Shown: positions 46,319-61,905, counted from the stretch's first letter. The stretch is 64,000 bases of DNA from Verrucomicrobiota bacterium (GCA_042565725.1 JBHORK010000005.1:4370-68369), one strand, 5' to 3'. Notes: a model not told the origin generated them from the sequence alone. A program made the numbers and translations.

Positions 46319-46393
46319 GCCCCCTTCGTCTATCGGCTAGGACATCAGGTTCTCATCCTGGAAAGAGGGGTTCGACTCCCCTAGGGGGTGCCA
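46319..46393 (+). tRNA. tRNA-Glu (anticodon CTC)
   Basis: Hand-folded: acceptor GCCCCCT/AGGGGGT, D-arm GTCT-ATCGGCTA-GGAC, anticodon arm TCAGG-TTCTCAT-CCTGG, variable AAAG, T-arm AGGGG-TTCGACT-CCCCT, discriminator G, encoded CCA. Confidence 0.85.
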
Positions 46394-48063
46394 ATAGGAG
46401 TCAAATGCGAACTCTCACCCGTTTTGTTGGAAACCCTTGGTAATAGGTCGTTCGCGTAAAGCGCAATCCTAACTTTATACCATTTAGTTCGTATTTGCGT
46501 GTGGAAGACCCCTTTGTCGGTCGGCGGCTTTTCCTTCTCAGGGTCAAACTGGCTTACATTGATTTCCTTCACGATGAGACTGATAAGCTCCTTCTGTTCC
46601 TCAAGCGGAAGGTTCTTGACCACGTTATCAAATGCCAGCAGAGAATCTGCTATCACCTTCTCGTCTGTCACGACCTGCTCTTTGTAGTTCATGTCCACTT
46701 TGAGCCGTTCTATCTCCATTTCAACATCGTACTTTCTCTGAGACACCCTTTCTGCTTCAGCCATGAAATCATCTGTCATGTGGTTTGCGCCTTTCTTCTT
46801 GGCTGTCTCTATACAGTTCCTCACTTGCTGTGACAGCTTGAGGTGCTGTTTCTCAAGCTGACTCAGCTTTGATTTCATGGGGCGCAATGATTTCGTTTTT
46901 GTTGTATTCGAGGATTTGACCGTCTGTTTGATAACTTCCGGGTGTCTGCCAATCTCCCCCACATACTCGATAATCAGATCTTCAAAAGCCCTGGCAGGCA
47001 CTCTTCTTATTGGACAATCTGAATGACTGCCATCCTTCACAACATCTGTGCACGTATAGTAGAGATACGGATTCCCATCCTTGTCTTTCTTTCCCCCTTG
47101 ATTAGGAGTAAGGCTCTTCCCGCAATACCCACACTTCAACAAGCCTTTCAGCAGATGTATGTGCTTATCCCTTCTGTGAACCCACTTCCTTCTTCTCTTG
47201 GAAAGAGCTTCATTGGCATCCTCCCAAAGTTTCTTTGATACAAGTGCTACATGCTCTGACTCGTACTCATCGTCTCCACGCCTGATGATTCCTTTATAGA
47301 GAGGATTCGCGATCAGCCTCTTTACCTTGTCGGGCTGAAACCTTCTTTCTCCAACTGTCTTCTCTGTACCGTCTTTTCTTGTCCAAACGCTCTTCTTTGT
47401 TCTATTCCCTTGCTCGTTGAGTGTGTTGCAGACCTCCGTGGAGTTTCTCAGCTTGACGGCAAGCCGGTACATTTCCTTCACGAGCGCGGATTCCTCTTTG
47501 TGCGGAACAAGCTTTTGTATGTCCTTCTCATACTCATAGCCTGCGGGGACCCGCCCTCCAAGCCATTTGCCCCTTTTGGCTCTCTCCGTCATACCTGCCG
47601 TTGTCCTTTCAGATATGAGCTCTCTTTCATATTGCCCAAAGCTGAGCAACATATTGAGCATGAGCATGCCCATCGGTGTTGATGTATCGAACTGCTGTGT
47701 TGCAGATACAAAGTCAACCCCGCACTTCTCAAGCTTTGCCCACAGCTCATAGAAATCAACGATGCTTCTGGATATCCTGTCCAGTTTGTATGCTACGACA
47801 ACATCAACCTTTCCGCTCTCAACTGCACTCAACAATGCCTGAATGGCAGGCCGTTCAAGATTCTTCCCAGAATATCCCGGGTCTTCAAAATATGAAGACG
47901 AATGCCAGTTATCCATTTGATGTATGGATATGTAGTGCTCGCAGATATCCTTCTGTGCATCGAGTGAGCTGTACTCACCTTGAGCCTGCTCGTCTGTTGA
48001 GACACGAGTGTAGACTGCACATCGTACAATCTTGCTCTCTGTCTTTGTTGTCTTCTTTGCCAT
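46381..48063 (-). CDS. large serine recombinase (resolvase/invertase N-terminal domain + recombinase + zinc-ribbon domains)
   Basis: 560 aa. VRCAVYTRVSTDEQ catalytic-Ser block, VVVAYKLDRISRS, recombinase domain, Cys cluster CGYCGK...YYTC...C, C-terminal coiled coil. The last 13 nt overlap the 3' end of tRNA-Glu. Confidence 0.9.
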   Translation of the reverse strand: MAKKTTKTESKIVRCAVYTRVSTDEQAQGEYSSLDAQKDICEHYISIHQMDNWHSSSYFEDPGYSGKNLERPAIQALLSAVESGKVDVVVAYKLDRISRSIVDFYELWAKLEKCGVDFVSATQQFDTSTPMGMLMLNMLLSFGQYERELISERTTAGMTERAKRGKWLGGRVPAGYEYEKDIQKLVPHKEESALVKEMYRLAVKLRNSTEVCNTLNEQGNRTKKSVWTRKDGTEKTVGERRFQPDKVKRLIANPLYKGIIRRGDDEYESEHVALVSKKLWEDANEALSKRRRKWVHRRDKHIHLLKGLLKCGYCGKSLTPNQGGKKDKDGNPYLYYTCTDVVKDGSHSDCPIRRVPARAFEDLIIEYVGEIGRHPEVIKQTVKSSNTTKTKSLRPMKSKLSQLEKQHLKLSQQVRNCIETAKKKGANHMTDDFMAEAERVSQRKYDVEMEIERLKVDMNYKEQVVTDEKVIADSLLAFDNVVKNLPLEEQKELISLIVKEINVSQFDPEKEKPPTDKGVFHTQIRTKWYKVRIALYANDLLPRVSNKTGESSHLTPIGTP

Positions 48064-48075
48064 GATGCCTCCTGC

Positions 48076-48119
48076 AGTTCGTATATAATGAGTTACCTAC
48101 TATAGTTATAATACGAACT
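48076..48119. promoter_or_regulatory. 9-bp inverted repeat around AT-rich boxes just upstream of the recombinase start
   Basis: agttcgtat (48076-48084) ... atacgaact (48111-48119) flanks tataat/tatagt-like hexamers 13 nt from the recombinase ATG (48063). Operator/promoter or recombination-site-like. Confidence 0.35.
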
Positions 48120-48556
48120 ACTTGCAAGACAAAGATATCAGTCAGAATGCTAGATTCATGGATTGTGCGGAACAGGGCAGGATTCGAACCGGCGAAAACA
48201 CACCAAGTTTCTTCGAAAACAGATGCATTTAACGATGATGTTACACAGATAGGTACACATGAATCAGGCGCCTTCAGGCGTTTTGAGTCACGGCTAGTCA
48301 TAGAAAAGGCGTCTGCTGACCTTCAGGAGATCATTCATGCTTGGGCGGAATTGGCTGGTTCACTCAAAGCTGCAGCGCTGGCTGTGGTGAGGAGTCAGGC
48401 CTCCAAGAGCAACGCATCCATAGATATCGCCTAGATCACATAATTTGGTTGAATAGTAGCTTCGTTTACAGTGCCCCCATTTTCAACTTGCGTTGAAATG
48501 CTGGACCGTCTATAGTCTCCTGTTAATGAATGGCGAGCAGTGCAGGAGGGTTCGGT

Positions 48557-50053
48557 ATGCGTGTATTATTTACGTTCACGGGTTTTCACGACCCGTACGC
48601 AGTAGGCTTGATCGGCGACGATCAACAGCCGGGGCCCGTTCTGTCTCTTGTTTCGGCGAGACAGTTCGATAAAGTCATCCTTTTCTCTACCCCCACCACG
48701 GAAATCCACACCCAGGATACCGAAGCCGCACTCAAGGAGAGACACCCCAAGCTTGGTGTCAGGATAATAGATCTACCGCTCCCTGACCCTACGGCGTACA
48801 CGGCGATTCTGCGCCTTCTACGCAAGCACGTCGGCGGAATAGTCACAAAGCGGCCGGACGACGAGTACTCCGTTGCAGTTGCTTCCGGGACTCCGCACAT
48901 GCACGCATGCTGGGTGCTTCTTGTCTCCGGAGGCGAGATACCGGCAAAGCTTCTCCACATCCGTCCGCCGAAATACGTCACCAAAGATCTACCATTGGTT
49001 TCAGAAGTTGATCTGTCTGCTCCAGAGTTTCCGGAGGTCAGTGCTTCTCTGTGCATGGAACCGCAGGCGGAATACCAGAAGCATATCGGGTTGGATCAAG
49101 CTTTGCAGGAACTGCAGATCGTTGGGGAACACCCTAAGTTCATTCAAGCCGTAAAGATGGCCTCCGTCGTTGCGGAGCACGACACCCCGGTGCTTGTCAG
49201 GGGAGACACAGGAACCGGCAAAGAACTGATTGCGCGTTTGATTCACCGGCTTTCTGCCCGAGACCAAGACACGTTCATCCCCGTCAATTGCGGGTCCCTT
49301 CCGGGAAACCTTATAGAAAGCATACTGTTCGGTCATAAGAAGGGAGCCTTTACCGGGGCCTCATCCGATCAGATCGGAAAATTCGAGCAAGCGGACGGCG
49401 GCACTCTCTTCCTGGATGAGATCGGGGAACTACCGGCAGAGCTCCAGCCTCGCCTGCTTAGAGTGCTGGAAGATGGAATCATCGAGCCTCTCGGGTCAAA
49501 GCAAAGCAAGAAGGTTGACGTACGGATCGTTGCCGCCACAAATCGTGACCTGGAACAAGCAATTGAGAAAAAGGAATTCCGCGAAGATCTCTACTATCGG
49601 ATCTCCTTCACGGTAATATCACTGCCTTCTTTGAAAGAGAGACGCAGTGACATCCCAACCATTGCTTTGCATTTACTTGCTAAGCTGAATGCTTCTCTGA
49701 AAAAGCCCAAACGTTTGTCTCCAGAGGCTCTGTCTCGCCTCGAACAGCACAACTGGCGCGGCAATGTCAGAGATTTGGAGAATGTTCTTGGCCGGTCGCT
49801 GATGATGGCGACTCAAGAGGTCCTCACTGCCGATGATCTGCTAATCGAGGAACCGCGCCGAAAAAAGGATCCGCTGGCTGTTCTTCCTGAGCCATATGAG
49901 GGGTTCATTCTCGACGACTATCTCAAAAGCGCGAGGAAGCAACTCATTCTTCACGCACTGGAACGGTCCAATGGTAGCCAGACTGGGGCTGCGAAGCTAC
50001 TGGGAATAACCCCCCAGGCGGTGCACAAGTTTGTTAGGAATCAGCAGAAATGA
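48557..50053 (+). CDS. RtcR-like sigma54-dependent transcriptional activator (CARF-like N-domain + AAA+ + Fis-type HTH)
   Basis: Start at M10 (ATG 48557; AGGAGG 7 nt upstream). N-domain ...VAVASGTPHMHACWVLLVSGGEIPAKLLHIRPP parallels E. coli RtcR HITTGTHVAQICWFLL...ARLIQSSPP (from memory). Walker A GDTGTGKE, GAFTGA loop (KKGAFTGAS), Walker B LFLDEIGEL, RIVAATNRDL, FREDLYYRI, C-terminal GAAKLLGITPQAVHKFV. Confidence 0.8.
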   Translation: MRVLFTFTGFHDPYAVGLIGDDQQPGPVLSLVSARQFDKVILFSTPTTEIHTQDTEAALKERHPKLGVRIIDLPLPDPTAYTAILRLLRKHVGGIVTKRPDDEYSVAVASGTPHMHACWVLLVSGGEIPAKLLHIRPPKYVTKDLPLVSEVDLSAPEFPEVSASLCMEPQAEYQKHIGLDQALQELQIVGEHPKFIQAVKMASVVAEHDTPVLVRGDTGTGKELIARLIHRLSARDQDTFIPVNCGSLPGNLIESILFGHKKGAFTGASSDQIGKFEQADGGTLFLDEIGELPAELQPRLLRVLEDGIIEPLGSKQSKKVDVRIVAATNRDLEQAIEKKEFREDLYYRISFTVISLPSLKERRSDIPTIALHLLAKLNASLKKPKRLSPEALSRLEQHNWRGNVRDLENVLGRSLMMATQEVLTADDLLIEEPRRKKDPLAVLPEPYEGFILDDYLKSARKQLILHALERSNGSQTGAAKLLGITPQAVHKFVRNQQK

Positions 50054-50166
50054 ACGGAAATTGCATATATATTGAACCTAGGCTGAAATGCCAGGCTGTC
50101 GCCTTAACGGGCCTGGATGCTTCTAACATGCTGCCAGCAAGCAAGTTGCGCCAATCTTGGCCGACA

Positions 50167-50182
50167 TGGCATGAACCGTGCA
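50167..50182 (+). promoter_or_regulatory. candidate sigma54 (-24/-12) promoter
   Basis: TGGCATGAACCGTGCA vs consensus TGGCACG-N4-TTGCW. Invariant GG and GC are present at the exact 10-nt spacing. It lies 38 nt upstream of ATG 50220 and directly downstream of the sigma54 activator gene. Confidence 0.6.
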
Positions 50183-50219
50183 TAATATGCGAGTCATGTG
50201 GAATGAGAGAATTTACGCC

Positions 50220-51491
50220 ATGAATAACGATAGAGCTTTTACAAATGTGGATGACGAGGCTTTGGTCCAGCGCTTACGGGCGGCCCAGTCCAGAGTTACG
50301 TTTGTTGCCCCCGGCATCAGCAAACTCGTGGCTGGGGAGCTCATCGCCTGTCTGGAGAGGATTCCTGTAGACCAGGTGAACGTCATTCTTGATGTGGATC
50401 CGGAAGTATGCCGCCTCGGCTATGGGGATATTGAGGGCCTTGAGCTGCTCAAGATAGAAGGCGAGAAGCATGGGCTGATGCTATGTCATCAGCCTGGCAT
50501 TCGACTGGGACTACTGATCGCCGATGACACGACGGTTATCTATTCCCCAACTCCATTGCTCATAGAAGCTGGTTCTACGACACCTACAAAACCAAATGGC
50601 ATCTGCATCTCGGGTGACAGTATGGAGACAGTGAAGAAGGCATGCGGCGTAGAAGGCAGTGCTGTTGATCGAGAGCTGGGAATGGATCCCGCCAAGACTC
50701 CCGACATCGAGATGATCAAACAGGATCTGGAACGTAATCCTCCAAAGAGATTCGATGTTGCCCGTGCTGAACGGGTCTTCAATTCCAGGCTTCAGTATGT
50801 CGAGTTCTCGTTCGAGGACTACAAGCTTTCCAAGAAGACCATTTCTATCCCGGCGGAGCTGACGGGTATTACTCAAGACAAAGACCTGATCCAACGCTGG
50901 CGAAATAGTTTTCGGCTCTTCTCGGGTACTTCAGCTCTGGAAGTTGTGCGAAACGAGGGAGCACCCGAGGAGGAATTTCTTACCGAGCAAGGCTTGGAAA
51001 CTGAAAAGAAGGCCATTGTGAGTGAGTTCCTTCTTGTCGTTCCCCGATTTGGCACGGTCATTCTTCGCAGTAGACGTAATGACTTCGACAAACGCATCGA
51101 GGTGTTCAAAGAAAGAGTCGAAGCTTTCAAAAAGGGCGTAGTTCAGCAGGTAGAGGAACACTTGCTGAAGACCAAGGAGAGCTTAATCGGTGACCTGATC
51201 TCCCATGTCAAAGAGAAGCCGCCAGAGAAGTGGAGGAAGACGATGCCCTCTTCCAAGCTCTCGGATACGGAGGCAAAAGAACGTCTACAGGATGAACTGG
51301 AGGGTTTGTTTGGGAGCGTCGAACGTGTCTTTGACCCAAAGGTTCGAATCGTCTTCAAAGAAGTTACGTACGAGAGCATCAGCGATTCCGACTTCCAGGC
51401 GTCGCTGACCAAGCATTTTCCACCTACGGCACTGCAAGAGCTCTTCAGCGAGCACGACGCAGCGCCTGAGGCTACTAGAGAGGAGAACTGA
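50220..51491 (+). CDS. hypothetical protein (first gene of the operon)
   Basis: 423 aa from ATG 50220 (the ORF-track GTG 50178 lies inside the promoter). N-terminal alpha/beta region (VTFVAPGISKL...VNVILDVDPEV...CHQPGIRLGLLIADDTTVIYSPTPLLIEAG). C-terminal charged helical region. No family recognised. Confidence 0.5.
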   Translation: MNNDRAFTNVDDEALVQRLRAAQSRVTFVAPGISKLVAGELIACLERIPVDQVNVILDVDPEVCRLGYGDIEGLELLKIEGEKHGLMLCHQPGIRLGLLIADDTTVIYSPTPLLIEAGSTTPTKPNGICISGDSMETVKKACGVEGSAVDRELGMDPAKTPDIEMIKQDLERNPPKRFDVARAERVFNSRLQYVEFSFEDYKLSKKTISIPAELTGITQDKDLIQRWRNSFRLFSGTSALEVVRNEGAPEEEFLTEQGLETEKKAIVSEFLLVVPRFGTVILRSRRNDFDKRIEVFKERVEAFKKGVVQQVEEHLLKTKESLIGDLISHVKEKPPEKWRKTMPSSKLSDTEAKERLQDELEGLFGSVERVFDPKVRIVFKEVTYESISDSDFQASLTKHFPPTALQELFSEHDAAPEATREEN

Positions 51492-51493
51492 CT

Positions 51494-52507
51494 ATGAGTG
51501 AAAAGACTATATGGGGAATACACGCTGGCCGGACCGGCGACGCTGATTCCCTTTTCTTGAGACATAACGTCATTGCCCTGGGATGGGTGAAGATGGGGAA
51601 TATTGGCGAACTGCCGGGAGAACGCGAAGCGTTCAAGGCACGCATGATGGAAGTCATGCCGGACAAGAAGCCTGGCTACTATCCCAACGCAGCGGGCCAG
51701 CTCTACCGTTTTGTGCATGAGATGAAAGAAGGCGATCTGGTCGTCTATCCTTCCAAGAAAGATAAGCATATGCACATCGGAGAGATCACAGGTTCGTTTA
51801 AGTACGCCACGGAACCTGAACCTGGTTATCCCCAACAGCGACCCGTTAAGTGGCTCAAGGACTTTCCGCGCACGCGTTTCTCTCAAGGCGCATTGTATGA
51901 AACTGGCTCTGCCATGAGCTTTTTCCAAATCAAGAACTATGCCGATGAATTCATCTCAGCATTGACAGGTGAGCAATCAGCCGAAGTGCCGGAAGACGAT
52001 CCGACGGTTTCAGTTGTTGCGGAGGAGATAGAACAAAGCACAGTCGATTTCATTCTCAAGATGCTTTCGCAGGAACTGAAAGGCCATCCGTTCGCTGACT
52101 TTGTGGGTCACCTCCTAAATGTCATGGGCTACAAGACACGCATTGCACCTGAAGGTCCAGACGGCGGCGTTGATATTGTTGCCCACAAGGACGAGCTTGG
52201 GTTTGAGCCCCCCATCATCAAGGTACAAGTGAAGAGCACTGAGGGTACAATTGGCGATCCAGTCGTTTCCCAACTATACGGCAAAGTCGAGACGGGCGAA
52301 TTCGGGATGGTTGTGACGCTCGGCTCTTTCAGTAACCAGGCAATTAGCTTTGCGCGGAATAAGAGCAACCTACGGTTGGTCGACGGCAATGAATTGGTCG
52401 ATATGATCCTCGCGCATTACGAGAAGTTTGACTCCAAGTACAAAGGGCTCCTCCCTCTCCGGCGGGTTTACGTCCCTGAGAAGATAGAGGATTCAGAACG
52501 AGGTTAA
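51494..52507 (+). CDS. Mrr-like restriction endonuclease (PD-(D/E)xK) with N-terminal beta-rich domain
   Basis: 337 aa. C-terminal Mrr_cat-type block FADFVGHLLNVMGYKT...PDGGVDIVAHKD...IIKVQVKST...GMVVTLGSFSNQAISFA. N-terminal about 130 aa (IWGIHAGRTGD...GDLVVYPSKKDKHMHIGEITG) is of uncertain family. Confidence 0.8.
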   Translation: MSEKTIWGIHAGRTGDADSLFLRHNVIALGWVKMGNIGELPGEREAFKARMMEVMPDKKPGYYPNAAGQLYRFVHEMKEGDLVVYPSKKDKHMHIGEITGSFKYATEPEPGYPQQRPVKWLKDFPRTRFSQGALYETGSAMSFFQIKNYADEFISALTGEQSAEVPEDDPTVSVVAEEIEQSTVDFILKMLSQELKGHPFADFVGHLLNVMGYKTRIAPEGPDGGVDIVAHKDELGFEPPIIKVQVKSTEGTIGDPVVSQLYGKVETGEFGMVVTLGSFSNQAISFARNKSNLRLVDGNELVDMILAHYEKFDSKYKGLLPLRRVYVPEKIEDSERG

Positions 52508-52511
52508 AACT

Positions 52512-53390
52512 TTGGGAAGCAATAAAGAGAAAAGAAAACTCCAGATCAGCAATGGGCACTACTTGTTGTTTGATGAGTTGGCTAAACTCATGAATGCAAT
52601 TGTCTCATTGAGTGATCAGAAGAAGATATTGATGTCTGATTTGGAAGAAGCGTCTGGTCTGCCGTTCCGGCAGGTGAGAAACAGAATTAGTATTGGTCGC
52701 GCAATGGGCCTCTTTCTTTCCAAAACGCTTGACCTCAGTGCTGTTGGCTGCTTGATTGCAAAATATGATATGTTTTTCGGCAATAAGGGAACACTGGAGT
52801 GGCTTCATTACAAAGCTTCCTCCTCCTACGTAAACCTTGTGTGGTTCGAAACATTCAACACATTTCTACCTCACCATTCTCCACAGAACTACGAAGAATG
52901 GCTATCTTATTTTCGTGGCACGCTAGCAGAGAACTATACAGAACATTCATTAAAGGATCACCTTGGTAAAGAAGTTCGCTTTCTCATCGATGCTTATACA
53001 TCTTCTGGTTTCAGTAAACTGCAATTGTTGTATGAAGCATCTGATGGGCGGATTTCACGCAGGAGATATGCTCGGCCATGTGAAGAAGTCCTCGCTGCCA
53101 TGATCTACACCTTTGGTGCAAACCAAGGTGCTACCCTTTTGCAGGTTGCCGAGCTTGTAGAGCAACCAGCGTCTCCAGGGCTGCTTCTGGCCATGGATCA
53201 AGGCACGCTTTTGCAGCTATTGGAGAGCTTGAACGGTCGCGGATGGCTCAGGTTGGAGACCACCCACAATCTTGCTCAAGTGCGCCTGTTGGACGGATAT
53301 GACCCTTTGGCCTTCCTTGAGGCATTCTATGAGAAACGCAAGCCCGTGCCCACGAAGAAGAAGACGAAAGAAGAGAGGATGCTGTTGTGA
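52512..53390 (+). CDS. hypothetical protein with wHTH-like segment (possibly DUF4007-like; unverified)
   Basis: 292 aa from TTG 52512 (alternative ATG 52590). ILMSDLEEASGLPFRQVRNRISIGRAMGLF looks like a winged helix. No BrxA/BrxB motifs recognised. 4-nt gap to the upstream gene and 4-nt overlap with the next one. Confidence 0.4.
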   Translation: MGSNKEKRKLQISNGHYLLFDELAKLMNAIVSLSDQKKILMSDLEEASGLPFRQVRNRISIGRAMGLFLSKTLDLSAVGCLIAKYDMFFGNKGTLEWLHYKASSSYVNLVWFETFNTFLPHHSPQNYEEWLSYFRGTLAENYTEHSLKDHLGKEVRFLIDAYTSSGFSKLQLLYEASDGRISRRRYARPCEEVLAAMIYTFGANQGATLLQVAELVEQPASPGLLLAMDQGTLLQLLESLNGRGWLRLETTHNLAQVRLLDGYDPLAFLEAFYEKRKPVPTKKKTKEERMLL

Positions 53391-53851
53391 CCGATGGTGT
53401 TGACATTCTTAAGGAGGTAAAAAACCTAGCAAAGCGCAGGCGAGGCAAGGCTCTGATGGTTCTCACAACCGACTACACCGGCCAGAAAGCATGGGCGGCG
53501 GAACTTGCCCAGCAGGCAGACGGTCAACACATGGATCTTCTTGATCACTTTGCTGCCAACGAGGAGTTGGCGGGGAAAGTGGGAGCTATCAATGTTGAGG
53601 AGCTTTTCGAATTACTGTCAGAGGTCGCAGATGCAAAGCTGTTGATTGTTACCGGGCTGGAGTTTCTGCGTGCTGCCTGGTCAGGTCAAAGCGGTATTCA
53701 GGAGGCATTCTGTCATCATGTAGAAACTTGGGATAAACGACTATCGCTGGTGTTTGTAACACAATTTGAGAAGTTGCTGGAGAACCGGGTTTCAGATCGT
53801 TTTCAGCATCAATTCACATTTAATCAGAAGGATACATTTGCACTGACATGA
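53387..53851 (+). CDS. small hypothetical protein in the BrxB/BrxF position; no Walker A
   Basis: 154 aa, GTGA and ATGA overlaps with its neighbours (translational coupling). LLIVTGLEFLRAAWSG is faintly BrxB-like. TTDYTGQKAW is at best a degenerate P-loop. Confidence 0.4.
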   Translation: MTDGVDILKEVKNLAKRRRGKALMVLTTDYTGQKAWAAELAQQADGQHMDLLDHFAANEELAGKVGAINVEELFELLSEVADAKLLIVTGLEFLRAAWSGQSGIQEAFCHHVETWDKRLSLVFVTQFEKLLENRVSDRFQHQFTFNQKDTFALT

Positions 53852-56800
53852 AGAATAAGGGACTTTTCAGCAGCATATTCCTTGACGACCTCAAAGAAGA
53901 GGTCGCCATGGACGACGCCGGCCGAGGCCGTATGGCCACATTGGCTCAGACTTGGAACACGTGCGACCGAGCTACCTCTGAAGCATTATGGAATTCCTAT
54001 ATCAAGCAAGCGCTCGGTTACCTTGAGTTTGTGCCCGCGCCGACACCGTGTGGAGCCAACCTATATCCACTATACGAGGACTGGGGTTTCCTCAATTGTC
54101 TAGCGGTGCTGTGCTTGGTTGAGCCTGGTGGCGATATTGATGATGACAGAATCGGCAGATTCTGGCCGGGCAGACTTGTTGGAGAACTCAAGAAACGTAA
54201 TCTCAATTGGGGAATTCTCACCGACGGAAACATATGGCGCCTATATTCGCTCAAGACATCAAAGCCCTATGAAGATTATGTAGAATTATCGCTGCTGCCT
54301 TCAATTGAAGCCAACGACGAATCTGAATATGCACTGTTTGAGAAATTCTTCCATAAGGATTCTTTTGCTCCAATCATCGAGGATGATTCTGACGCTGATG
54401 AGGAAGCCCTGAAGCAGGGCGTATATCGCTGTCGACTTGATGATGACATGGAATCCTCCGAGAACATTCTGGAGGAATGGGTCAAAAAACCGCTCCTGCA
54501 ACAAGTGGATGAAATCCTTCAATATGTATGCAACGGTTTCATCTTCGACACCAAGAAAACGGGAGAGGAATACACAGAGGAAGAGCGGACAGACATTTTC
54601 GAGAGCGCCGTAAAACTCCTATACCGCTGCCTCTTCCTGTTTTACGCAGAAGCGCGGCAACTTCTGCCGTCTGAAGCTGACAAGGCTGAAGCCTACTGCA
54701 AGCATTCGATTAGAGCACTGTGTCAAGAAGCGCACAAGTTTCGTTGGGGACGTAGGACGGAAAATGAAGACTACGATCTATGGAACCATCTCAAGGGTTT
54801 AGTTCGGGCGGTGAATGAAGGTGATTCGGAATATGGTGTGATGGGCTACAATGGCGGCCTGTTTGACGACGAGGAAGAGAAATTTCTGGGTGAGCATCGG
54901 CTAAGAAATGACTTTCTTGCTCGGGCTCTGTATCTTTTAGCATATGTCGAGCCATATGACGGCAATCCAGATGACGAGTACGAAATACCCTACGAAGACT
55001 TGGAAGTTCGTCACCTCGGAGAACTTTACGAGAATATACTCGAATTCAATGTCATGCTTGCCGACGCTGACCGCATTCGTCGCCGAACCAAGAAAAGCGT
55101 GGAGATATTACTGACATCAGAAACCAAGAAACTGAAAGGCGACGCCCGGATTAAAAAAGGCGACGTGTACTTTGGGGAGTCAGCTCTGGAGAGGAAGCAA
55201 TCAGGCTCTTACTACACTCCTGAATCACTTGTTCGATTTCTAAATAAAAAAGCAGTCATAGCCCCACTGCGAGAGCAGTTTGACAAAGACTACCGCGAAC
55301 GGTTTGATGAATTCCTTACGCAGATCAACAAGTCCACAGATAGCCGAAGCCAGAGTGCTGCTGCGAGATCTGCGGTCACACTTATCCAGCGATTTGCCGA
55401 CGAAGTTGTTGTGCAATTCACTGTTTGTGATCCCGCTATGGGGAGCGGCCATTTCCTCGTCAATGCGGCCAATCAGATGACAGATCTTGTCGTACAAGCA
55501 TTATCGGAAATTCCTCTGGTTAATGGCCTTGATAACGATTTGCTCTGTCAGCCCAACTATTGGCGCAGGCTCATTACAAGGCATTGCTTGTATGGAGTTG
55601 ATCTCAATCCCCTTGCTGTTTACCTCGCAAGACTATCGCTCTGGCTGAACAGTTTTGCGCGTGATCATAAGCTAACCTTTCTCGATCAGCACCTTCAAAC
55701 AGGAAACAGCTTGATCGGCATTCGTACTTTAGATCAACTCAGGAACATTCCAAAGCGCAAGAAGGATAAGAAAAGAAAGAAGACTGACCAAGAAGAATTT
55801 TCCGAGTGGGATAGGGTGACCTCTTTTTCGGTCGAAGCAGCCAAAAGTATTGCCGATATTGCTACAGTTGATGAGGATGACACAGATCAGATGCATGATC
55901 TTTTTGAGAATGCGCAGAATCAAGCTCATAAACACTTAGCGCCATTAGCCGATCTCCACACCGCCTATCTCATGGATTCGGGTATTGATGAAGATTCTTA
56001 CAGGCAGCTTGTTTCACACTTAGCAAGAACTGGTTCTATTGAGGGAGTTGGCAACGTCGACCTGCTCGAAACCTGGGAGGCTGTCGAGGCGTACAGGGTT
56101 CGGCACAATTTCTTCCACTGGGCTCTGGCCTTCCCGGAAAGCATGGACTTGGGCTTCTGCGCGACCGTTGGGAACCCACCTTGGGATATGGTCACAGCTC
56201 AACCAGCCGAGTTCTTTGGTAAATACGATAAACAGTTTCGCTCTTTAGGGCGTTCAGAGAGTCTTAGAAGAATTGATGAACTTTGCAATGCCCATCCTGA
56301 AGTAAAGGACGGGTGGGCACGACACAAGAGCACCTTTCAAGAGGCCAATGCATTCTTTAAGGAGCCAGCCGTATACCCATATAAGCCAAGCGGCAGGAAT
56401 AATCTATACCACTATTTCCTACATAGGGCTTATGATCTTCTTAAGCCCGAAGGCGTGATAGGCATCGTGCTTCCTGGAAGTTTCAATGCTGACAAAGGCG
56501 CTTCTCCGCTTAGACGCCTTTTCTTTATGAAGTGTTCGGTTAGCGCTTTCTTCTGCTTTAGCAATGAGAAGTTTATCTTTAAGAATGTCCATCATGCGTT
56601 TCGGTTTATTGCCTTTTGTGCGAAAAAGACGGGGAGTACTGAGAGTTTTCGTGTTTGTTTTCTTACTGATCCAAGAGAAGCTGTCCATCCAAATCTGTTA
56701 GACGGTGTTTTGCGAATTCTAGATCGTTCTGGCCTTCAATTATCTCTCTCCACAATAGAGTCTCTTTCACCTGAAAAGCTTAGTATTCTCGAATTCAAAA

Positions 56801-57792
56801 GACAAAAAGACGTTGACCTAACAGAACATTTCTATGGAACAACAGAGACCATAGGAACCGCGACATCAGAGATGCGCTTTAATTTCTCTATAGAAATGAT
56901 GAGTAATAATGATGCATGGCGGTTTGATAATGGAACCCCCTCTGATATTCCTGTTTACGTTGGTAGGTGCTTTCAACAGTTCGACCACAGACTATTACCT
57001 GTAGAAACATTCGTTCCAGAACATTTATTGAAAGATGCTTATGGTGAGGCGGCGTCCCAGCCATGGGAACAATACCGCCTTGTTTTCAGAGATGTCACTG
57101 GAGGGACAAGCGAACGAACTTGCATAGCAACTCTCCTCCCTGCAGGGAGCGCCTGCCTTGAGACTGCGCGCATCATATATCCTTCTTCTGAAAAGATCGT
57201 GCCGGCCAGTAACCTGCAGGCTTATACATTGGGTATCCTCAATTCCTTCTGTCTGGACTATATAATTCGATTTATGGTTCGGCTTCACTTATCTCAGCAC
57301 ATTATGGAGCGTGCGCCGTTTGTGTGCCGTTCATCTGGGGACATGATATTCAGAGCACTCGTCGCGCGTGTTGCTCGTTTGGTATGTGATGATGCTGCGA
57401 TGGAGGGTTTTTGGCATCAATGCTACAATGAAGAGTGGAGCATGTCGGATTTCTGGTATCCGAGAGCAGGCAGCACAGACTATGGCCCAGCACATGAGCG
57501 AGAGATTCGTGCAAATATTGCAGCATCGGCAAAGGATCTAACACGATCTTGGGCAACTGCCTGCGGTGTCCATGACCGTCTCCCGGATCGAAGGGATACA
57601 GGTCCCAGATCCCAACTGCGTGCTGAAGTTGATGCATATGTTGCTCATCTCTACGATTTGAGCCGCGAGGATTTTGCCTATATACTTGATGCTTTTCCAG
57701 TACTAAAGAAAAAAGAAATTAAGGTGTTTGGCGAGTTTCAGAGCAAGCGAAAGTGTTTGGAGGAATACGATAGAATCAAACAGATTCTGTGA
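53848..57792 (+). CDS. pglX: PglX-like N6-adenine DNA methyltransferase (Eco57I/type IIG-like)
   Basis: 1314 aa. KQSGSYYTPESLVRFL, motif I VCDPAMGSGHFLV, motif IV VGNPPW. Long C-terminal specificity region. N-terminal NWGILTDGNIWRLY block. Confidence 0.85.
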   Translation: MKNKGLFSSIFLDDLKEEVAMDDAGRGRMATLAQTWNTCDRATSEALWNSYIKQALGYLEFVPAPTPCGANLYPLYEDWGFLNCLAVLCLVEPGGDIDDDRIGRFWPGRLVGELKKRNLNWGILTDGNIWRLYSLKTSKPYEDYVELSLLPSIEANDESEYALFEKFFHKDSFAPIIEDDSDADEEALKQGVYRCRLDDDMESSENILEEWVKKPLLQQVDEILQYVCNGFIFDTKKTGEEYTEEERTDIFESAVKLLYRCLFLFYAEARQLLPSEADKAEAYCKHSIRALCQEAHKFRWGRRTENEDYDLWNHLKGLVRAVNEGDSEYGVMGYNGGLFDDEEEKFLGEHRLRNDFLARALYLLAYVEPYDGNPDDEYEIPYEDLEVRHLGELYENILEFNVMLADADRIRRRTKKSVEILLTSETKKLKGDARIKKGDVYFGESALERKQSGSYYTPESLVRFLNKKAVIAPLREQFDKDYRERFDEFLTQINKSTDSRSQSAAARSAVTLIQRFADEVVVQFTVCDPAMGSGHFLVNAANQMTDLVVQALSEIPLVNGLDNDLLCQPNYWRRLITRHCLYGVDLNPLAVYLARLSLWLNSFARDHKLTFLDQHLQTGNSLIGIRTLDQLRNIPKRKKDKKRKKTDQEEFSEWDRVTSFSVEAAKSIADIATVDEDDTDQMHDLFENAQNQAHKHLAPLADLHTAYLMDSGIDEDSYRQLVSHLARTGSIEGVGNVDLLETWEAVEAYRVRHNFFHWALAFPESMDLGFCATVGNPPWDMVTAQPAEFFGKYDKQFRSLGRSESLRRIDELCNAHPEVKDGWARHKSTFQEANAFFKEPAVYPYKPSGRNNLYHYFLHRAYDLLKPEGVIGIVLPGSFNADKGASPLRRLFFMKCSVSAFFCFSNEKFIFKNVHHAFRFIAFCAKKTGSTESFRVCFLTDPREAVHPNLLDGVLRILDRSGLQLSLSTIESLSPEKLSILEFKRQKDVDLTEHFYGTTETIGTATSEMRFNFSIEMMSNNDAWRFDNGTPSDIPVYVGRCFQQFDHRLLPVETFVPEHLLKDAYGEAASQPWEQYRLVFRDVTGGTSERTCIATLLPAGSACLETARIIYPSSEKIVPASNLQAYTLGILNSFCLDYIIRFMVRLHLSQHIMERAPFVCRSSGDMIFRALVARVARLVCDDAAMEGFWHQCYNEEWSMSDFWYPRAGSTDYGPAHEREIRANIAASAKDLTRSWATACGVHDRLPDRRDTGPRSQLRAEVDAYVAHLYDLSREDFAYILDAFPVLKKKEIKVFGEFQSKRKCLEEYDRIKQIL

Positions 57793-57817
57793 TAATAGAT
57801 AAGGTCAGGAGCAACCT

Positions 57818-60800
57818 ATGATTAAAATAGCTGACATAGTCAGATTGAAGAGCGGATACGCCAACTTCGTTAAATTGAAGTCTGATTTCGAAGAGGCCGA
57901 AATGAATGCCGGGCGTATGGCGATGTATCGCCCGACGAAAGCCCACCGCAATGCGTTGGAACGATTAGCTCGTGGGCTATATCAGCCTAACGACAAGAAG
58001 TTCTACATGTTGAGTGGTTCTTATGGAACTGGAAAATCACATTTGTCCCTGATGTTCGCAAACATGCTGAGTCACTCAAGCAGTGACCCGGAAATGAAAC
58101 AATTCTTCGATAACTACACGACCCTTGATGCCGAGAAGGGAAAGATGCTCAGAAATGTGCGCAAAGGGGGCCAGTATCTTGTCGCTATTTGTGACTACCA
58201 AACAGGCCGGAGTTTTGAGGAACGTGTGCTGCGTGCGGTGTTTGAGGCGTGTGACCGCATGGGATTGGATGCGGGTGTTCACACTGAGTTCGACGAGGCG
58301 GAACGACTACTTGCTGACTGGGAATCCAAGGCAAAGGACAAGAAGGCCATCCGTAACTATTACGAGGACTTCAGTCAGGCGTTGGAGAATGTTGCGTCAG
58401 GTGTGACTGTTGTGGCGCTTCGCGCGGAACTGAAGAAATTCAATGCAGAAATGCTTGAGAATTTTCGTGTGGCATACAAAGAGGCCCAGGGCGGTACGGA
58501 ATTCCAGGCTCAATCCGGCAACATTATCCCAATTATTGAACGCCTAGTGAAGACCGACGCCTTCAAGGATCGTTTCGTTGGGCTAGCTATCTTCTTTGAT
58601 GAATTCGGCTTTACGCTGGAAAAGGCAGAGTATTCCAAAGATGTGCTACAGGGGTTTATGGAGTCAATCTGCCAGAATCTATCCAACGTGGTGTTTGTCG
58701 GGTGTATTCACAAGTCATTCTCAGCTTATTCGGACAGGTTCAGTCAGGATGATGCAGCTGTGATGACGGCTCGCCTTACTTCGGTTGACCTTTTGAATGA
58801 AGGCATTGAAGAAATCATCAGTGCAATTGTTGAAGTAGATAAATCTGCTGATACATGGAAGAAGGAGATAGAGCCGAAGCTGGGTGTTCTTGATCAACTC
58901 CTGCCAACCTGTGGCACGTTGAAACTGTTCCCGTGGATCGATGACGTACAACGCGTCCGCCAACGGGTTCTGGAGGATATCTATGGCGTGCATCCAATGA
59001 CACTGGCTTGCTTGCTCCGGCTATCATCAGAGGTGGGTTCAGACGTCCGTAGTACGTTTACGTTTTTTGCCGGTGATGTTGGCGGAGAACCAGGCTCGTA
59101 TCTGGAGTTTATCGAACGCACAGGGCTGTTGGTGGATGGTGGAAAACTCAGCCTATATACCGTAGACGGACTTTATATATTTTTCAAAGAGCAGCTCAGT
59201 CCACGAAACCCTGAACTTCGAGATCGTCAGCGGCAATTGGTGAATGGATATGTTGCCAGTACTGATGCGCTTCGCAAATCGATGCAAGGTGAGCTCTTTG
59301 ATGAGGCGTCTGATGAGCACACGCGGTTGCTTCGCACTATTCTGATTTACCAGTTGTGCCAGATCCCTTGCGCCGCTGAGAATATCCAGTTTGGACTTTA
59401 CGCGCTCACGAACCCCGAAAAGAAACAGATTGAAAGGAAGCTGAAGCACTTGGAGAAGGCCGGTGCATTGTTCTTCCGTAGACAATCCAAGACCTATGAG
59501 ATGGCCGTCGGAACCGGCGAGGATCCGTATGATCTCATAGAACAATATTTGAAAGAAGCCTCGCTACATCCACGCAACAAGGTCGACGAATTGCTTCGCG
59601 AAGGTGGCGACCGCAAGGATCTAGAATACCTGGACGCCAAACAGTACAACCTGCATTTTGGCGAAGACAAGCGATTCAAGCGATACTTCGCTCAGGCGAA
59701 AGACCTTGGTGAGCAGTACTGGGCAAAACTGCAAGAAGATTTCGATGCTGCCCAAGCCAAAGAGAAATCGAGCTATGAAGGGTGTATCGTATATGCACTT
59801 TGTGAAGACGAGGCGGAGCGTAAAGTCGCCAGGGATGCCGTTAAGACTGTTCCGAGTGACAATCTAATCGTGGGGGTTCCTCATGATCCAATCCCCTTCT
59901 CTGAAACGCTTCTTCGCGTTAAGGCCTGTCGCCACTATCTCAGTCCTGACTCAACCACAAAACTAAGCGCGCAGACAGAATCGCGTTTGCGCGATATTTT
60001 CGACAATCCTGAGGATGGCTTCTTACCTGAATTGCAGAGAATCTTGATCCAGATCCGAGAAGGAGCCAATTCATGTTGGTACGGTAAGGTGGGAGCCGTA
60101 GTGGTTGACAAGCCGCCACAGGAGCACAAACCCGTTGATGATGTATGCACTTCCTTGTTCGCAAAGCGATGCCGGATAAAACACCCTGATCTGAACTGTG
60201 TGCACGATGATAAGTGGCGGACCGGCAAGAATACGGCACTGAAGCAGGCAATCAGCAATCTCTTGGAAGCTGATCGTGTCCAAATCGACAATGGTAACCC
60301 TGATAATCACGGTGAGAAGAGGTATCTCGAAAAGACCCTATTGAAAGGTGCCGGTGCCTTGAGGAAGACAGATAGTCAAGGCCCTGTGACTTACTTTGCC
60401 TGCGAAACAGATTCAGTCAAGCTCTCTGACGATATGCCGGTTCTCAAAGAACTTCTGGCTAGAATGGCGAACCTCAAACCTTCAGAGACCTTAATGCTGG
60501 GAGAATTCCTACAGGAAGCACGTGCACCAGAGTATGGCGCAAGCGGAACAATGTTGGCGCTGTGTCTCGCTCACGTCGTGCGGGCCTTTGGTGAACGACT
60601 GCGTGCCTATAGGGACTCAACTCGAATGGCTGAGGGCCTCCTGGACAGCTGCGACGATATTATTGCGACAGTAGCAGATCCAGCAACCAAGCTCATTCTT
60701 CAGGTCAGGGATATTTCTGAACCCCAGAAGCTACTTGTCGAAGGTTTCGCCAAGGCCGTGAAGGCTCCCGCACTTAAACATGGTGAGATCCGCGCACTGA

Positions 60801-61888
60801 GCGACGTCATGGAAATGCTATCGCTGTGGTGGCGGGACAAAGTTATGCCGGTGGCCAGAGTAGAGGCATTGTACAAGAAGGCAGATCAAAAGCGTATCGC
60901 TGCTTTGAAAAATGTCTTTGCCAAAACAGAAGATAGTGATCGGTTTGAGTTCATCTTAAGTCTCTTGCCAAGCGTGTACACAGGGGAGCCCGTGGGTGAT
61001 GATATCGCAAAGAAGGATGCAGAATCCATAAGCGAGAAGTTTTCAAGAGACGTTCTTCTGCTTGAGTCGGGCGAGATCAAAGCAAATGGCTTGGTTGCGG
61101 AAGCGGTGGCCAAGCTCCATGGAGAAGCTGGAGATGTCGTGGTCTGCGAGCGCGTTGTGACAGACTGGTTCAAATCTTTGAACCCCACACAACGCGATGC
61201 GTTAAGGTATGAAGACCATCCTGAAGCTCAAACGCTGGTAAAGCTTCTGAGTGGAGGCACCGAATTTCCGACAGCTCTTTTCAGTCTCTTACCCAGAGAT
61301 TTTGGGCTCGGCGAGATGTACGAATGGACAGCTTTGCACACCGATGACTATGTAGCAAAATGGCGCCAAGCCAAGGAAGCGGTGGAAGCGGCCGCCGTTG
61401 TCGTCAAATCTCCAGCGATTCAAGCTGGCGTGAAGGCCAGGAAGATTTCTGATACACGTTTTGAGGTCGAGAAAGGTGGAGTCATCGACATCGTCCTCTC
61501 TGATGGCACAGGGACTATTATCTACACAATTGATGGCGAAGATCCGAAGTCCTCAGAAACAGCCATACGACTAGATGGTGGAGCTGCTTTATCGAAGGAG
61601 TTTGATACCTTACCGCATATCACCATCAAGGCGCGCGCACTGGATGACCAAGGCAACTCAAGCGATCTTGTTTCTGCTGATATTGTCAACAAGAGCATGG
61701 AATATAAAGTTGTTGTCACGCAAAATGACCTCTACTGGAAAGAAGGGGTTTTTAAGTTTCCCGAAGATATTGAGGGGTTAAGATCTGTGATGACGTCCAT
61801 GCTGCAGGAATGCGCAAAACAGAAGATCATAACCGATGCCCAAGCGGGTAAGTTGATCGATCACATTGATCAGGAACTGGGAGCTTAA
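57818..61888 (+). CDS. brxC: BrxC/PglY-like large P-loop ATPase
   Basis: 1356 aa. Walker A at about residue 66 (MLSGSYGTGKSHLSLMF), Walker-B-like AIFFDEFG. Size and position next to PglX/PglZ fit BrxC/PglY (DUF499-like). AGGAG RBS. Confidence 0.7.
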   Translation: MIKIADIVRLKSGYANFVKLKSDFEEAEMNAGRMAMYRPTKAHRNALERLARGLYQPNDKKFYMLSGSYGTGKSHLSLMFANMLSHSSSDPEMKQFFDNYTTLDAEKGKMLRNVRKGGQYLVAICDYQTGRSFEERVLRAVFEACDRMGLDAGVHTEFDEAERLLADWESKAKDKKAIRNYYEDFSQALENVASGVTVVALRAELKKFNAEMLENFRVAYKEAQGGTEFQAQSGNIIPIIERLVKTDAFKDRFVGLAIFFDEFGFTLEKAEYSKDVLQGFMESICQNLSNVVFVGCIHKSFSAYSDRFSQDDAAVMTARLTSVDLLNEGIEEIISAIVEVDKSADTWKKEIEPKLGVLDQLLPTCGTLKLFPWIDDVQRVRQRVLEDIYGVHPMTLACLLRLSSEVGSDVRSTFTFFAGDVGGEPGSYLEFIERTGLLVDGGKLSLYTVDGLYIFFKEQLSPRNPELRDRQRQLVNGYVASTDALRKSMQGELFDEASDEHTRLLRTILIYQLCQIPCAAENIQFGLYALTNPEKKQIERKLKHLEKAGALFFRRQSKTYEMAVGTGEDPYDLIEQYLKEASLHPRNKVDELLREGGDRKDLEYLDAKQYNLHFGEDKRFKRYFAQAKDLGEQYWAKLQEDFDAAQAKEKSSYEGCIVYALCEDEAERKVARDAVKTVPSDNLIVGVPHDPIPFSETLLRVKACRHYLSPDSTTKLSAQTESRLRDIFDNPEDGFLPELQRILIQIREGANSCWYGKVGAVVVDKPPQEHKPVDDVCTSLFAKRCRIKHPDLNCVHDDKWRTGKNTALKQAISNLLEADRVQIDNGNPDNHGEKRYLEKTLLKGAGALRKTDSQGPVTYFACETDSVKLSDDMPVLKELLARMANLKPSETLMLGEFLQEARAPEYGASGTMLALCLAHVVRAFGERLRAYRDSTRMAEGLLDSCDDIIATVADPATKLILQVRDISEPQKLLVEGFAKAVKAPALKHGEIRALSDVMEMLSLWWRDKVMPVARVEALYKKADQKRIAALKNVFAKTEDSDRFEFILSLLPSVYTGEPVGDDIAKKDAESISEKFSRDVLLLESGEIKANGLVAEAVAKLHGEAGDVVVCERVVTDWFKSLNPTQRDALRYEDHPEAQTLVKLLSGGTEFPTALFSLLPRDFGLGEMYEWTALHTDDYVAKWRQAKEAVEAAAVVVKSPAIQAGVKARKISDTRFEVEKGGVIDIVLSDGTGTIIYTIDGEDPKSSETAIRLDGGAALSKEFDTLPHITIKARALDDQGNSSDLVSADIVNKSMEYKVVVTQNDLYWKEGVFKFPEDIEGLRSVMTSMLQECAKQKIITDAQAGKLIDHIDQELGA

Positions 61889-61905
61889 GTTGAGATGGAA
61901 CAGTG

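Follow-up and report, generated by a model that had tools for sequence, protein, structure and literature searches.

RtcR of Escherichia coli and Salmonella is an enhancer-binding protein in which a CARF sensor, an AAA+ domain and a helix-turn-helix (HTH) serve activation at a sigma-54 promoter; in E. coli the target operon is rtcBA, from which rtcR is transcribed divergently. Deletion of its N-terminal domain renders RtcR constitutive, ligand binding leads to oligomerization, and the ligand reported for it is the 5' tRNA half with a 2',3'-cyclic phosphate end (PMC7790460). A family in which an RtcR-like CARF domain is joined to an AAA+ domain of the NtrC type and to an HTH, without Rtc linkage and often near restriction-modification systems, is described in passages of Makarova et al. 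(2014), which predict sigma-54-dependent activation of the downstream genes by ligands made in phage infection (PMC4012209). Passages of Bell et al. (2024) place RtcR homologs at the head of CoCoNuT, type I restriction-modification and Druantia superoperons and propose the same mechanism (PMC11090510); in these parts of both papers, the regulatory logic is stated as a prediction. Hidden Markov models for the family are present in PADLOC. Here we describe a member of this family encoded in a 64,000-nucleotide stretch of DNA from the metagenome-assembled genome of a Verrucomicrobiota bacterium (GCA_042565725.1, JBHORK010000005.1:4370-68369; hereafter the window, with positions counted from its first nucleotide), where it precedes a defense operon resembling bacteriophage exclusion (BREX) systems.

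We interpret positions 48482-50182 of the window as a self-contained, portable sigma-54 cassette, made up of the regulator gene, its own palindromes and a -24/-12 promoter that drives whichever operon is docked behind it, a reading to which we assign a probability of roughly 0.78. The initial annotation of the window had taken the gene for an RtcR-like CARF/sigma-54 activator whose promoter is aimed at a defense operon and not at rtcBA. This central reading is supported: the CARF fold, the match to family profile PDLC01995, the promoter found in 54/67 loci and the lack of rtcA and rtcB all agree with it. Here the cassette stands before a phospholipase D (PLD)-like/Mrr pair, followed by genes for a DUF4007 protein, a protein of 154 aa, a methylase resembling PglX, an ATPase of the BrxC/SspC type and a probable PglZ.

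The regulator shares with the restriction-modification-linked CARF_AAA_HTH family (PDLC01995) its domain architecture and its place at the 5' end of a co-directional defense operon, together with the sigma-54 dependence and CARF-mediated sensing predicted in the passages cited above (PMC4012209, PMC11090510). It differs in its cargo, a PglZ-containing BREX-like system with a PLD-like/Mrr pair, which does not figure in those passages of the two papers. The novelty initially claimed was overstated, the same type of regulator having been predicted there in 2014 and 2024, and the locus is a further example of a predicted kind of regulator, which establishes no new principle. New here are the BREX-like (PglZ) cargo behind a regulator of this family and the documentation of a conserved promoter and upstream activator site (UAS) architecture. 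BrxR, the WYL-type regulator of BREX operons, is a winged HTH-WYL protein described as a repressor. Like BrxR and other WYL regulators, the protein described here would be a ligand-sensing transcription factor at the head of a BREX-type operon; it differs in being a predicted ATP-dependent activator of a sigma-54 promoter with a CARF sensor, and the region yielded no WYL domain. The term RtcR does not occur in a 2026 survey of BREX systems (PMC12839542).

Architecture and sensor domain of the regulator

The regulator gene starts at an ATG (48557) with GGAGG just 5' of it, and homologs share the same beginning, M-x-x-L-L-T-F-T-G-F. An NCBI entry identical over all 498 aa carries the name 'RNA repair transcriptional activator RtcR family protein [Verrucomicrobiota bacterium]'. 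Pfam analysis identified Sigma54_activat (PF00158) at residues 188-354 (2.3e-68), AAA_lid_14 (PF25601, 4.9e-20) and HTH_8 (29.5 bits against a cut-off of 22). The GAFTGA loop is intact (residues 263-268, 49343-49360), its G, F, T, G and A positions being nearly invariant in the family alignment, as are Walker A (GDTGTGKE, 49202-49225), Walker B (LFLDEIGE, 49406-49429) and FREDLYYR in the arginine-finger region (49577-49600) intact in this protein. These domain matches and motif coordinates agree with the earlier description of a complete bacterial enhancer-binding protein core, its GAFTGA loop intact, and of an HTH of the Fis type; judged by its sequence, the regulator has every feature of an active sigma-54 activator. 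In a sequence search against solved structures in the PDB, all matches were sigma-54 activators (NifA, ZraR, NtrC1, FleQ and PspF), and no second sigma-54 activator gene was found within the 64-kb window. The recognition helix of the HTH, GITPQAVHKF, is nearly invariant throughout the family, which fits an operator sequence common to its members.

PADLOC profile PDLC01995 ('RtcR_PspF2--CARF_AAA_HTH') matched the full regulator at 2.5e-134, aligning residues 1-493 with profile positions 1-475 of 481, compared with 5.6e-68 for the PADLOC RtcR model, and the NCBIfam RtcR equivalog NF038308 reached 340.4 bits against a cut-off of 650. On these scores the protein is a relative of RtcR and not RtcR itself. 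BLASTP gave 32% identity over 379 aa (E 4e-56) with RtcR of E. coli K-12, in an alignment that starts at residue 64 and pairs VAVASGTPHMHACWVLLVSGGEIPAKLLHIRPPK of the regulator with IHITTGTHVAQICWFLLAEARYLPARLIQSSPPR of E. coli RtcR. The same alignment pairs SGTPHMHACWVLL...AKLLHIRPP with TGTHVAQICWFLL...ARLIQSSPP, confirming the E. coli motif that the initial annotation had given; the CARF strand-4 loop and the PP motif are common to the two proteins. Using E. coli RtcA and RtcB as tblastn queries, we found neither gene in the window, as had been stated earlier, nor in 86 related loci (1.13 Mb). Identification as canonical RtcR was rejected, given the score below the NF038308 cut-off and the lack of both genes in the related loci. 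The arrangement also differs from that of E. coli in that the regulator is co-directional with its predicted target.

For the sensor domain, residues 1-180 were modeled with AlphaFold2 from 70 sequences (mean predicted local distance difference test score, pLDDT, 88.9). All of the 50 best Foldseek matches in the PDB were CARF proteins, headed by E. italicus Csm6 with an analog of cyclic hexa-adenylate (cA6; E 1.5e-9, TMq 0.65-0.71) and S. thermophilus Csm6' with cA6, followed by Csx1, Cam1, Cdn1, Can2, Card1, Cad1 and ring nucleases. Among sequence profiles, the RtcR N-terminal domain (PF06956) matched residues 36-154 above its cut-off (30.1 bits against 23.1; 4e-7), the Csm6 CARF match stayed below the Pfam threshold, and PADLOC Csm6/CARF-HEPN models matched residues 1-143 at 5e-12 to 7e-11. 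The fold comparison and the Pfam match bear out the earlier proposal of a CARF/RtcR-like N-terminal domain, and on the strength of the model we conclude that the domain has the CARF fold. Unlike that of RtcR, it lies nearer to the canonical Csm6-type CARFs. Two of its loops, FTGFHDPY after strand 1 (48575-48598) and SGTPHMHACW after strand 4 (48884-48913), are invariant in relatives from many phyla in the CARF alignment, the second in the form SGTPxMHACW. Both occupy places expected for the CARF ligand pocket, with the Lys/Arg after strand 4 apparently replaced by His in this protein.

Promoter and upstream activator sites

Between the regulator gene and the operon lies TGGCATGAACCGTGCA, in which GG (50168-9) and GC (50180-1) have the canonical spacing. 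It begins 113 nt after the regulator stop, as first reported, and 37 nt separate it from ATG 50220. A scan of the 64-kb window with TGGCAY-N6-TGCW returned this site alone. With a chance expectation of ~0.8 matches per 64 kb, both strands counted, this uniqueness is weak evidence by itself; scaled to the 166-nt spacer and the right strand, the expectation is roughly 1e-3.

Conservation in homologous loci argues that the site is not a product of chance. With only the CARF domain alignment as query, contigs representing one genome per species yielded 80 loci, to which we added those of close homologs (single loci are given below by their L or P numbers). In the 67 loci, from many phyla, with a full-length regulator and enough downstream sequence, sites were scored out of 7 against TGGCAY-N5-TTGCW. 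A forward-strand site scoring >=6/7 was present in 54/67 loci, mostly 95-120 nt after the regulator stop; 44 of these 54 sites were perfect, with TGGCAY-N5-TTGCT as the typical sequence, whereas the reverse strand of the same segments contained such a site in 0/67 loci. The window site scores 6/7 at +113. We therefore consider TGGCATGAACCGTGCA to be, from its motif and conservation, a genuine -24/-12 element, and transcription is predicted to start at ~50192-50194. Rfam matches in the window were limited to two tRNAs, with none in the spacer.

Aligning 57 spacers of relatives on the promoter revealed two 16-bp palindromes, TTCAACC-NN-GGTTGAA, often as TTAAACC/GGTTTAA variants. The pair usually begins from 4-31 nt before to a few nucleotides after the regulator stop, so placed that the distal copy often overlaps the gene end. 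Its geometry is narrowly constrained: the paired palindromes are spaced 21 bp apart in 51/60 loci, and the start of the proximal one precedes the T of TGGCA by 89-95 nt in 51/53 loci (mode, 93). The window has the proximal palindrome TTGAACCTAGGCTGAA and, 22 bp upstream of it, where the family has its second palindrome, the putative distal half ATGAACGGAAATTGCA (p ~0.01 at this fixed position). Only two matches to the UAS consensus with <=2 mismatches occur in the 64 kb (0.33 expected), TTGAACCTAGGCTGAA and TTCAACTTGCGTTGAA, and they flank the regulator gene. An upstream palindrome corresponding to TTCAACTTGCGTTGAA is also found in L001 (-102), L088 (-77), L010 and L039, and in 7/80 loci overall; it may serve as a clade-specific autoregulation site. 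The 48482-48497 palindrome overlaps a possible weak -35 TTGCGT/-10 TATAGT pair. The copy in L088, the locus of the closest regulator homolog (72% identity), is likewise operator-like. CCAGGC-N14-GCCTGG, offered in the initial annotation as a UAS and actually located at 50091-50116, is not matched in any of the 57 spacers and was rejected in favor of the conserved palindromes. The regulator thus appears to combine, as an enhancer-binding protein should, an HTH with cognate upstream activator sites.

The docked operon and other cargo

Co-directional genes downstream of the regulator were clustered and representatives scanned against Pfam in 64 loci, 53 of which were callable and 11 too short for calling. 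Type I restriction-modification was the most frequent cargo (38 loci; HsdR with ResIII/EcoEI_R_C/HSDR_N and HsdM with HsdM_N/N6_Mtase), followed by VWA-type systems (5 loci), the DUF4007 BREX-like system (4 loci: the window, L001, L019 and L029), an N6 methylase alone called (2 loci) and other genes (4 loci). The regulator stands at the head of a restriction or defense operon in the window and in the 53/64 related loci with callable cargo. Close homologs (given as 62-72% or 66-72% identity) precede the same core of DUF4007, 154-aa and ~1310-aa methylase genes, and a VWA/FtsK/kinase set takes its place behind one homolog (68% identity). Additional genes are common in the type I loci, among them those for an AAA_21/DUF3696 ATPase, a protein kinase and a pPIWI-associated nuclease. 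In L012, L018, L052 and ~20 other type I loci, a conserved open reading frame (ORF) of ~94-125 aa comes first after the sigma-54 promoter, before hsdR; one example starts MATFKVVRVIDGDTFEV, and its DGDT motif recalls staphylococcal-nuclease-like proteins, with no Pfam match. L062 (Anaerohalosphaeraceae bacterium U12dextr), with type I restriction-modification cargo, apparently comes from a cultured isolate and not from a metagenome-assembled genome. An ARPP-1 (PF20208) gene lies divergently and directly upstream of the regulator in L001 (8752-9744), where it adjoins a HisKA_3/HATPase gene, and in the P0014 context; it is absent from the window.

In the window, the promoter is followed by seven plus-strand genes, spaced by -4 to 25 nt, which form a tightly packed operon of at least 14 kb (Table 1). 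A large serine recombinase is encoded at 46381-48063 (-), directly beside tRNA-Glu(ctc) (46319-46393, +), and GC content rises from 44.1% (1-46000) to 49.0% (46381-64000); together these place the regulator and operon on a tRNA-integrated island whose far end is past the window.

Table 1. Positions of the cassette elements and operon genes in the window
Feature	Position	Strand	Basis or remark
Palindrome TTCAACTTGCGTTGAA, putative autoregulation operator	48482-48497	+	75 nt before regulator ATG; <=2 mismatches
CARF-AAA+-HTH enhancer-binding protein, 498 aa, RtcR-like ('RtcR_PspF2' family)	48557-50053	+	Profile and sequence searches
CARF N-domain, ~residues 1-158	48557-49030	+	AlphaFold2 model, Foldseek, Pfam, PADLOC
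Sigma-54 interaction AAA+ domain and lid	49118-49840	+	Pfam PF00158, PF25601
Fis-type HTH	49937-50032	+	Pfam HTH_8
Predicted distal UAS half ATGAACGGAAATTGCA, degenerate, overlapping the regulator stop	50050-50065	+	8/14 specified positions; weak
Proximal UAS palindrome TTGAACCTAGGCTGAA	50072-50087	+	2 mismatches to family consensus; starts 95 nt before -24 element
Sigma-54 promoter TGGCATGAACCGTGCA, -24 TGGCAT / -12 GTGCA	50167-50182	+	Motif match and conservation
First operon gene, 423-aa protein, possible, probably inactive PLD-like N-domain	50220-51491	+	No Pfam, PADLOC or NCBIfam match
Mrr-type restriction endonuclease, PADLOC candidate PDC-S02	51494-52507	+	Pfam Mrr_cat 4.2e-26; PDC-S02 3.2e-136
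DUF4007 protein, SspB/BrxA-like DNA-binding component	52512-53390	+	Pfam DUF4007 2.9e-12; PADLOC SspB 2e-6
Conserved 154-aa partner of DUF4007 protein	53387-53851	+	No family match (Pfam, PADLOC, NCBIfam)
1314-aa Eco57I/PglX-like N6-adenine methyltransferase	53848-57792	+	Pfam Eco57I 2.2e-20
1356-aa BrxC/PglY- and SspC-like ATPase	57818-61888	+	PADLOC SspC 1e-29, BrxC 1.6e-13
Probable divergent PglZ, open frame past window end	61906-64000	+	698 codons without stop

The 423-aa product of the first gene belongs to a family of about 524 members with no Pfam domain. Its AlphaFold2 model (pLDDT 82) gave weak fold matches to TrmBL2, PLD and FAM83 (E 7e-4 to 0.1), with HQPGIR at the place of the HxK motif. 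Together with the Mrr_cat gene it forms a two-gene module (50220-52507) that recurs without the regulator in L091-L093, where it adjoins an HSDR_N/N6_Mtase/Eco57I protein. The BrxA-like interpretation of DUF4007 proteins follows published work (PMC12839542), and an ORF of 154-155 aa comes after the DUF4007 gene in L001-3, L088, L089, L090 and the P0126 and P0150 contexts. The methylase matched PADLOC models REase_MTase_IIG (1.5e-70) and DrmMI (1.9e-66) and scored 55 bits on NCBIfam BREX-1 PglX, far below the cut-off of 500. The last frame had no Pfam or PADLOC match of its own; it gave weak NCBIfam matches to BREX-4 PglZ (6.6e-6), BREX-3 (1.5e-5) and further PglZ models down to 4e-3, all far below cut-offs, and shares 35% identity across 481 aa (E 3e-111) with an L090 gene product that carries Pfam PglZ. 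Its identification as a divergent PglZ on these grounds justifies the designation BREX-like, which the initial annotation had used without having noticed PglZ.

Likeness to BREX, especially type 4, and to Ssp extends to the probable PglZ, the BrxC/SspC-like ATPase, the PglX-like methylase of the Eco57I family and the SspB/BrxA-like DUF4007 protein. In type 4, however, DUF4007 is paired with a PAPS reductase, and here with a methylase; the PADLOC BrxC and PglX models match weakly, no PADLOC model matches the PglZ-like ORF, and no BrxL was found among the genes up to the window end. None of the curated NCBIfam models for BREX types 1-6 reached its cut-off on the operon proteins, and the combination of DUF4007, methylase, ATPase and PglZ fits neither these types nor the recently defined BREX-related systems. 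The rare five-gene set of DUF4007, 154-aa, ~1310-aa methylase, ~1350-aa ATPase and PglZ genes is conserved in the window (52512-64000), L089 (3107-14030) and L090 (10001-20933), and can be viewed as a methylating version of type 4 BREX/Ssp. Among 5.8 billion proteins, only 41 DUF4007 homologs were found at E <= 1e-10. Variable genes (GmrSD, SLFN/AlbA_2 and DUF1016) sit between the core genes in different loci of the set.

Several other systems were considered and rejected for this operon. MADS comprises a type I-like methylase, a specificity subunit and a kinase, and NCBIfam MAD2 scored 30 bits here against a cut-off of 720. MANTIS/Gao_RL and the DUF499-centered 'BR' systems require a helicase or helicase-nuclease and a DUF1156 methylase and do not fit. 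DISARM was set aside in that DrmA, DrmB and DrmC are absent, although the methylase matches DrmMI models.

Activation model, competing explanations and implications

According to the model that we propose, regulator dimers would be held by their HTH on the TTCAACC-NN-GGTTGAA sites, while the CARF domain would stop AAA+ oligomerization until a nucleotide-type ligand binds. The ligand-bound hexamer would then touch sigma-54 through GAFTGA, remodel the closed complex with ATP and open the promoter. Transcription would start near 50192-50194, expression of the defense genes would rise, and the operon behind the cassette, whichever is docked, would be transcribed from the -24/-12 promoter. Negative control by the N-terminal domain is likely to be shared with RtcR (PMC7790460). 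Promoter activity in this organism, negative control by CARF, inducibility by infection and the ligand are all proposed by analogy, and so, by analogy alone, is the kind of signal, be it RNA damage or a nucleotide.

Several observations weigh against a working sigma-54 cassette devoted to this operon. The -12 element of the window is GTGCA where the family has TTGCT, and the distal UAS copy is degenerate (6 mismatches), so that the cassette may be weaker or decaying here. A sigma-70-like TTGGCC-N18-CATAAT (50157-50186) overlaps the -24/-12 element and no terminator-like site was found between regulator and operon; some expression could thus be independent of sigma-54. In L088, the regulator stop overlaps the DUF4007 start (ATGA, 3540-3560), a translational coupling with no intergenic UAS or promoter, and regulator and system are simply co-transcribed. 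The BREX-like core is found without such a regulator in three other contexts, which together with the L088 arrangement makes the link between regulator and BREX optional; that the same core occurs without the regulator and a similar regulator before other cargo indicates that cassette and cargo are independent modules. An inducible methylation-based system also poses a problem of self-protection, and no experimental study of any family member was found in the searchable literature. One explanation built on these points is that the operon is expressed mainly without sigma-54, through the sigma-70-like hexamers or by read-through from the regulator promoter, the -24/-12 site being a weakened relic; established restriction-modification logic, by which the methylase requires some constitutive expression for protection of host DNA, would favor it. 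We consider this improbable: the 3 sigma-70-like matches of the region do not exceed chance (2.0 +/- 1.3 in shuffles), the -24/-12 site still scores 6/7 and keeps the family offset from the UAS (95 against a mode of 93), and the catalytic motifs of the regulator are all intact. Speculatively, basal expression by read-through or from a sigma-70-like site could solve the self-methylation problem for a cassette that is otherwise sigma-54-dependent.

Other explanations concern what the regulator responds to. The CARF domain might sense a cyclic oligoadenylate or similar messenger that reaches it from another source in the cell, be it type III CRISPR, CBASS or a phage product, in place of RNA-damage fragments. 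The best structural matches are cA6-bound Csm6 (6tug, 8pe3), ahead of other CARFs that bind cyclic oligoadenylates, the PADLOC Csm6/CARF-HEPN matches are stronger than that of Pfam RtcR (4e-7), and invariance of the loops after strands 1 and 4 in many phyla is what a small universal ligand would lead one to expect. Similarity of fold does not, however, specify a ligand, no cyclase or Cas10 was seen among the annotated neighbors in the contexts inspected, and RtcR, the only relative studied, is reported to bind tRNA halves with a 2',3'-cyclic phosphate (PMC7790460); we regard a cyclic oligoadenylate-type messenger as unlikely, if credible. Control by a protein partner, perhaps a downstream defense component, would turn the cassette from infection sensing to feedback, and has a precedent in RtcA and RtcB, which, according to part of one report, bind the RtcR CARF domain and are required for activation (PMC9650030). 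The great diversity of the cargo, set beside the invariant CARF surface loops, argues against a cargo-specific partner, and such control seems to us quite doubtful. Hardly to be believed is the idea of an ordinary RtcR whose target rtcBA lies at some other place in the genome and which stands beside a defense operon by accident. The name of its NCBI entry, the Pfam RtcR domain and the identity with E. coli RtcR point that way, but the equivalog score falls short (340 bits against 650), PADLOC puts the regulator in a separate family, neither rtcA nor rtcB was found in the 86 related loci, and the promoter and UAS belong to a conserved co-directional cassette, unlike the divergent arrangement in E. 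coli.

For the family, the exact promoter and operator coordinates, the geometry shared across phyla and the list of loci allow experiments to be designed directly. For the BREX field, the sigma-54 cassette would add a second, unrelated class of regulator beside the WYL-type BrxR, and it is a pointer to a rare, unclassified PglZ system. It also raises the question of how an inducible methylation-based system escapes self-attack. To our knowledge, most known anti-phage systems are assumed to be constitutive or under a repressor; for whole restriction or BREX operons to be turned on by a ligand-gated activator would be a different logic. A further-reaching interpretation, which we hold only tentatively, is that the cassette is a mobile 'infection-inducible expression cassette' captured repeatedly by unrelated defense systems in >12 phyla. 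Here it would render inducible an undescribed BREX subtype, a methylating cousin of type 4 BREX/Ssp joined to a PLD-like/Mrr module, with a Csm6-like CARF answering a universal nucleotide alarm without a dedicated cyclase in cis. If this holds true, such cassettes would form a transcriptional, interferon-like layer of bacterial immunity.

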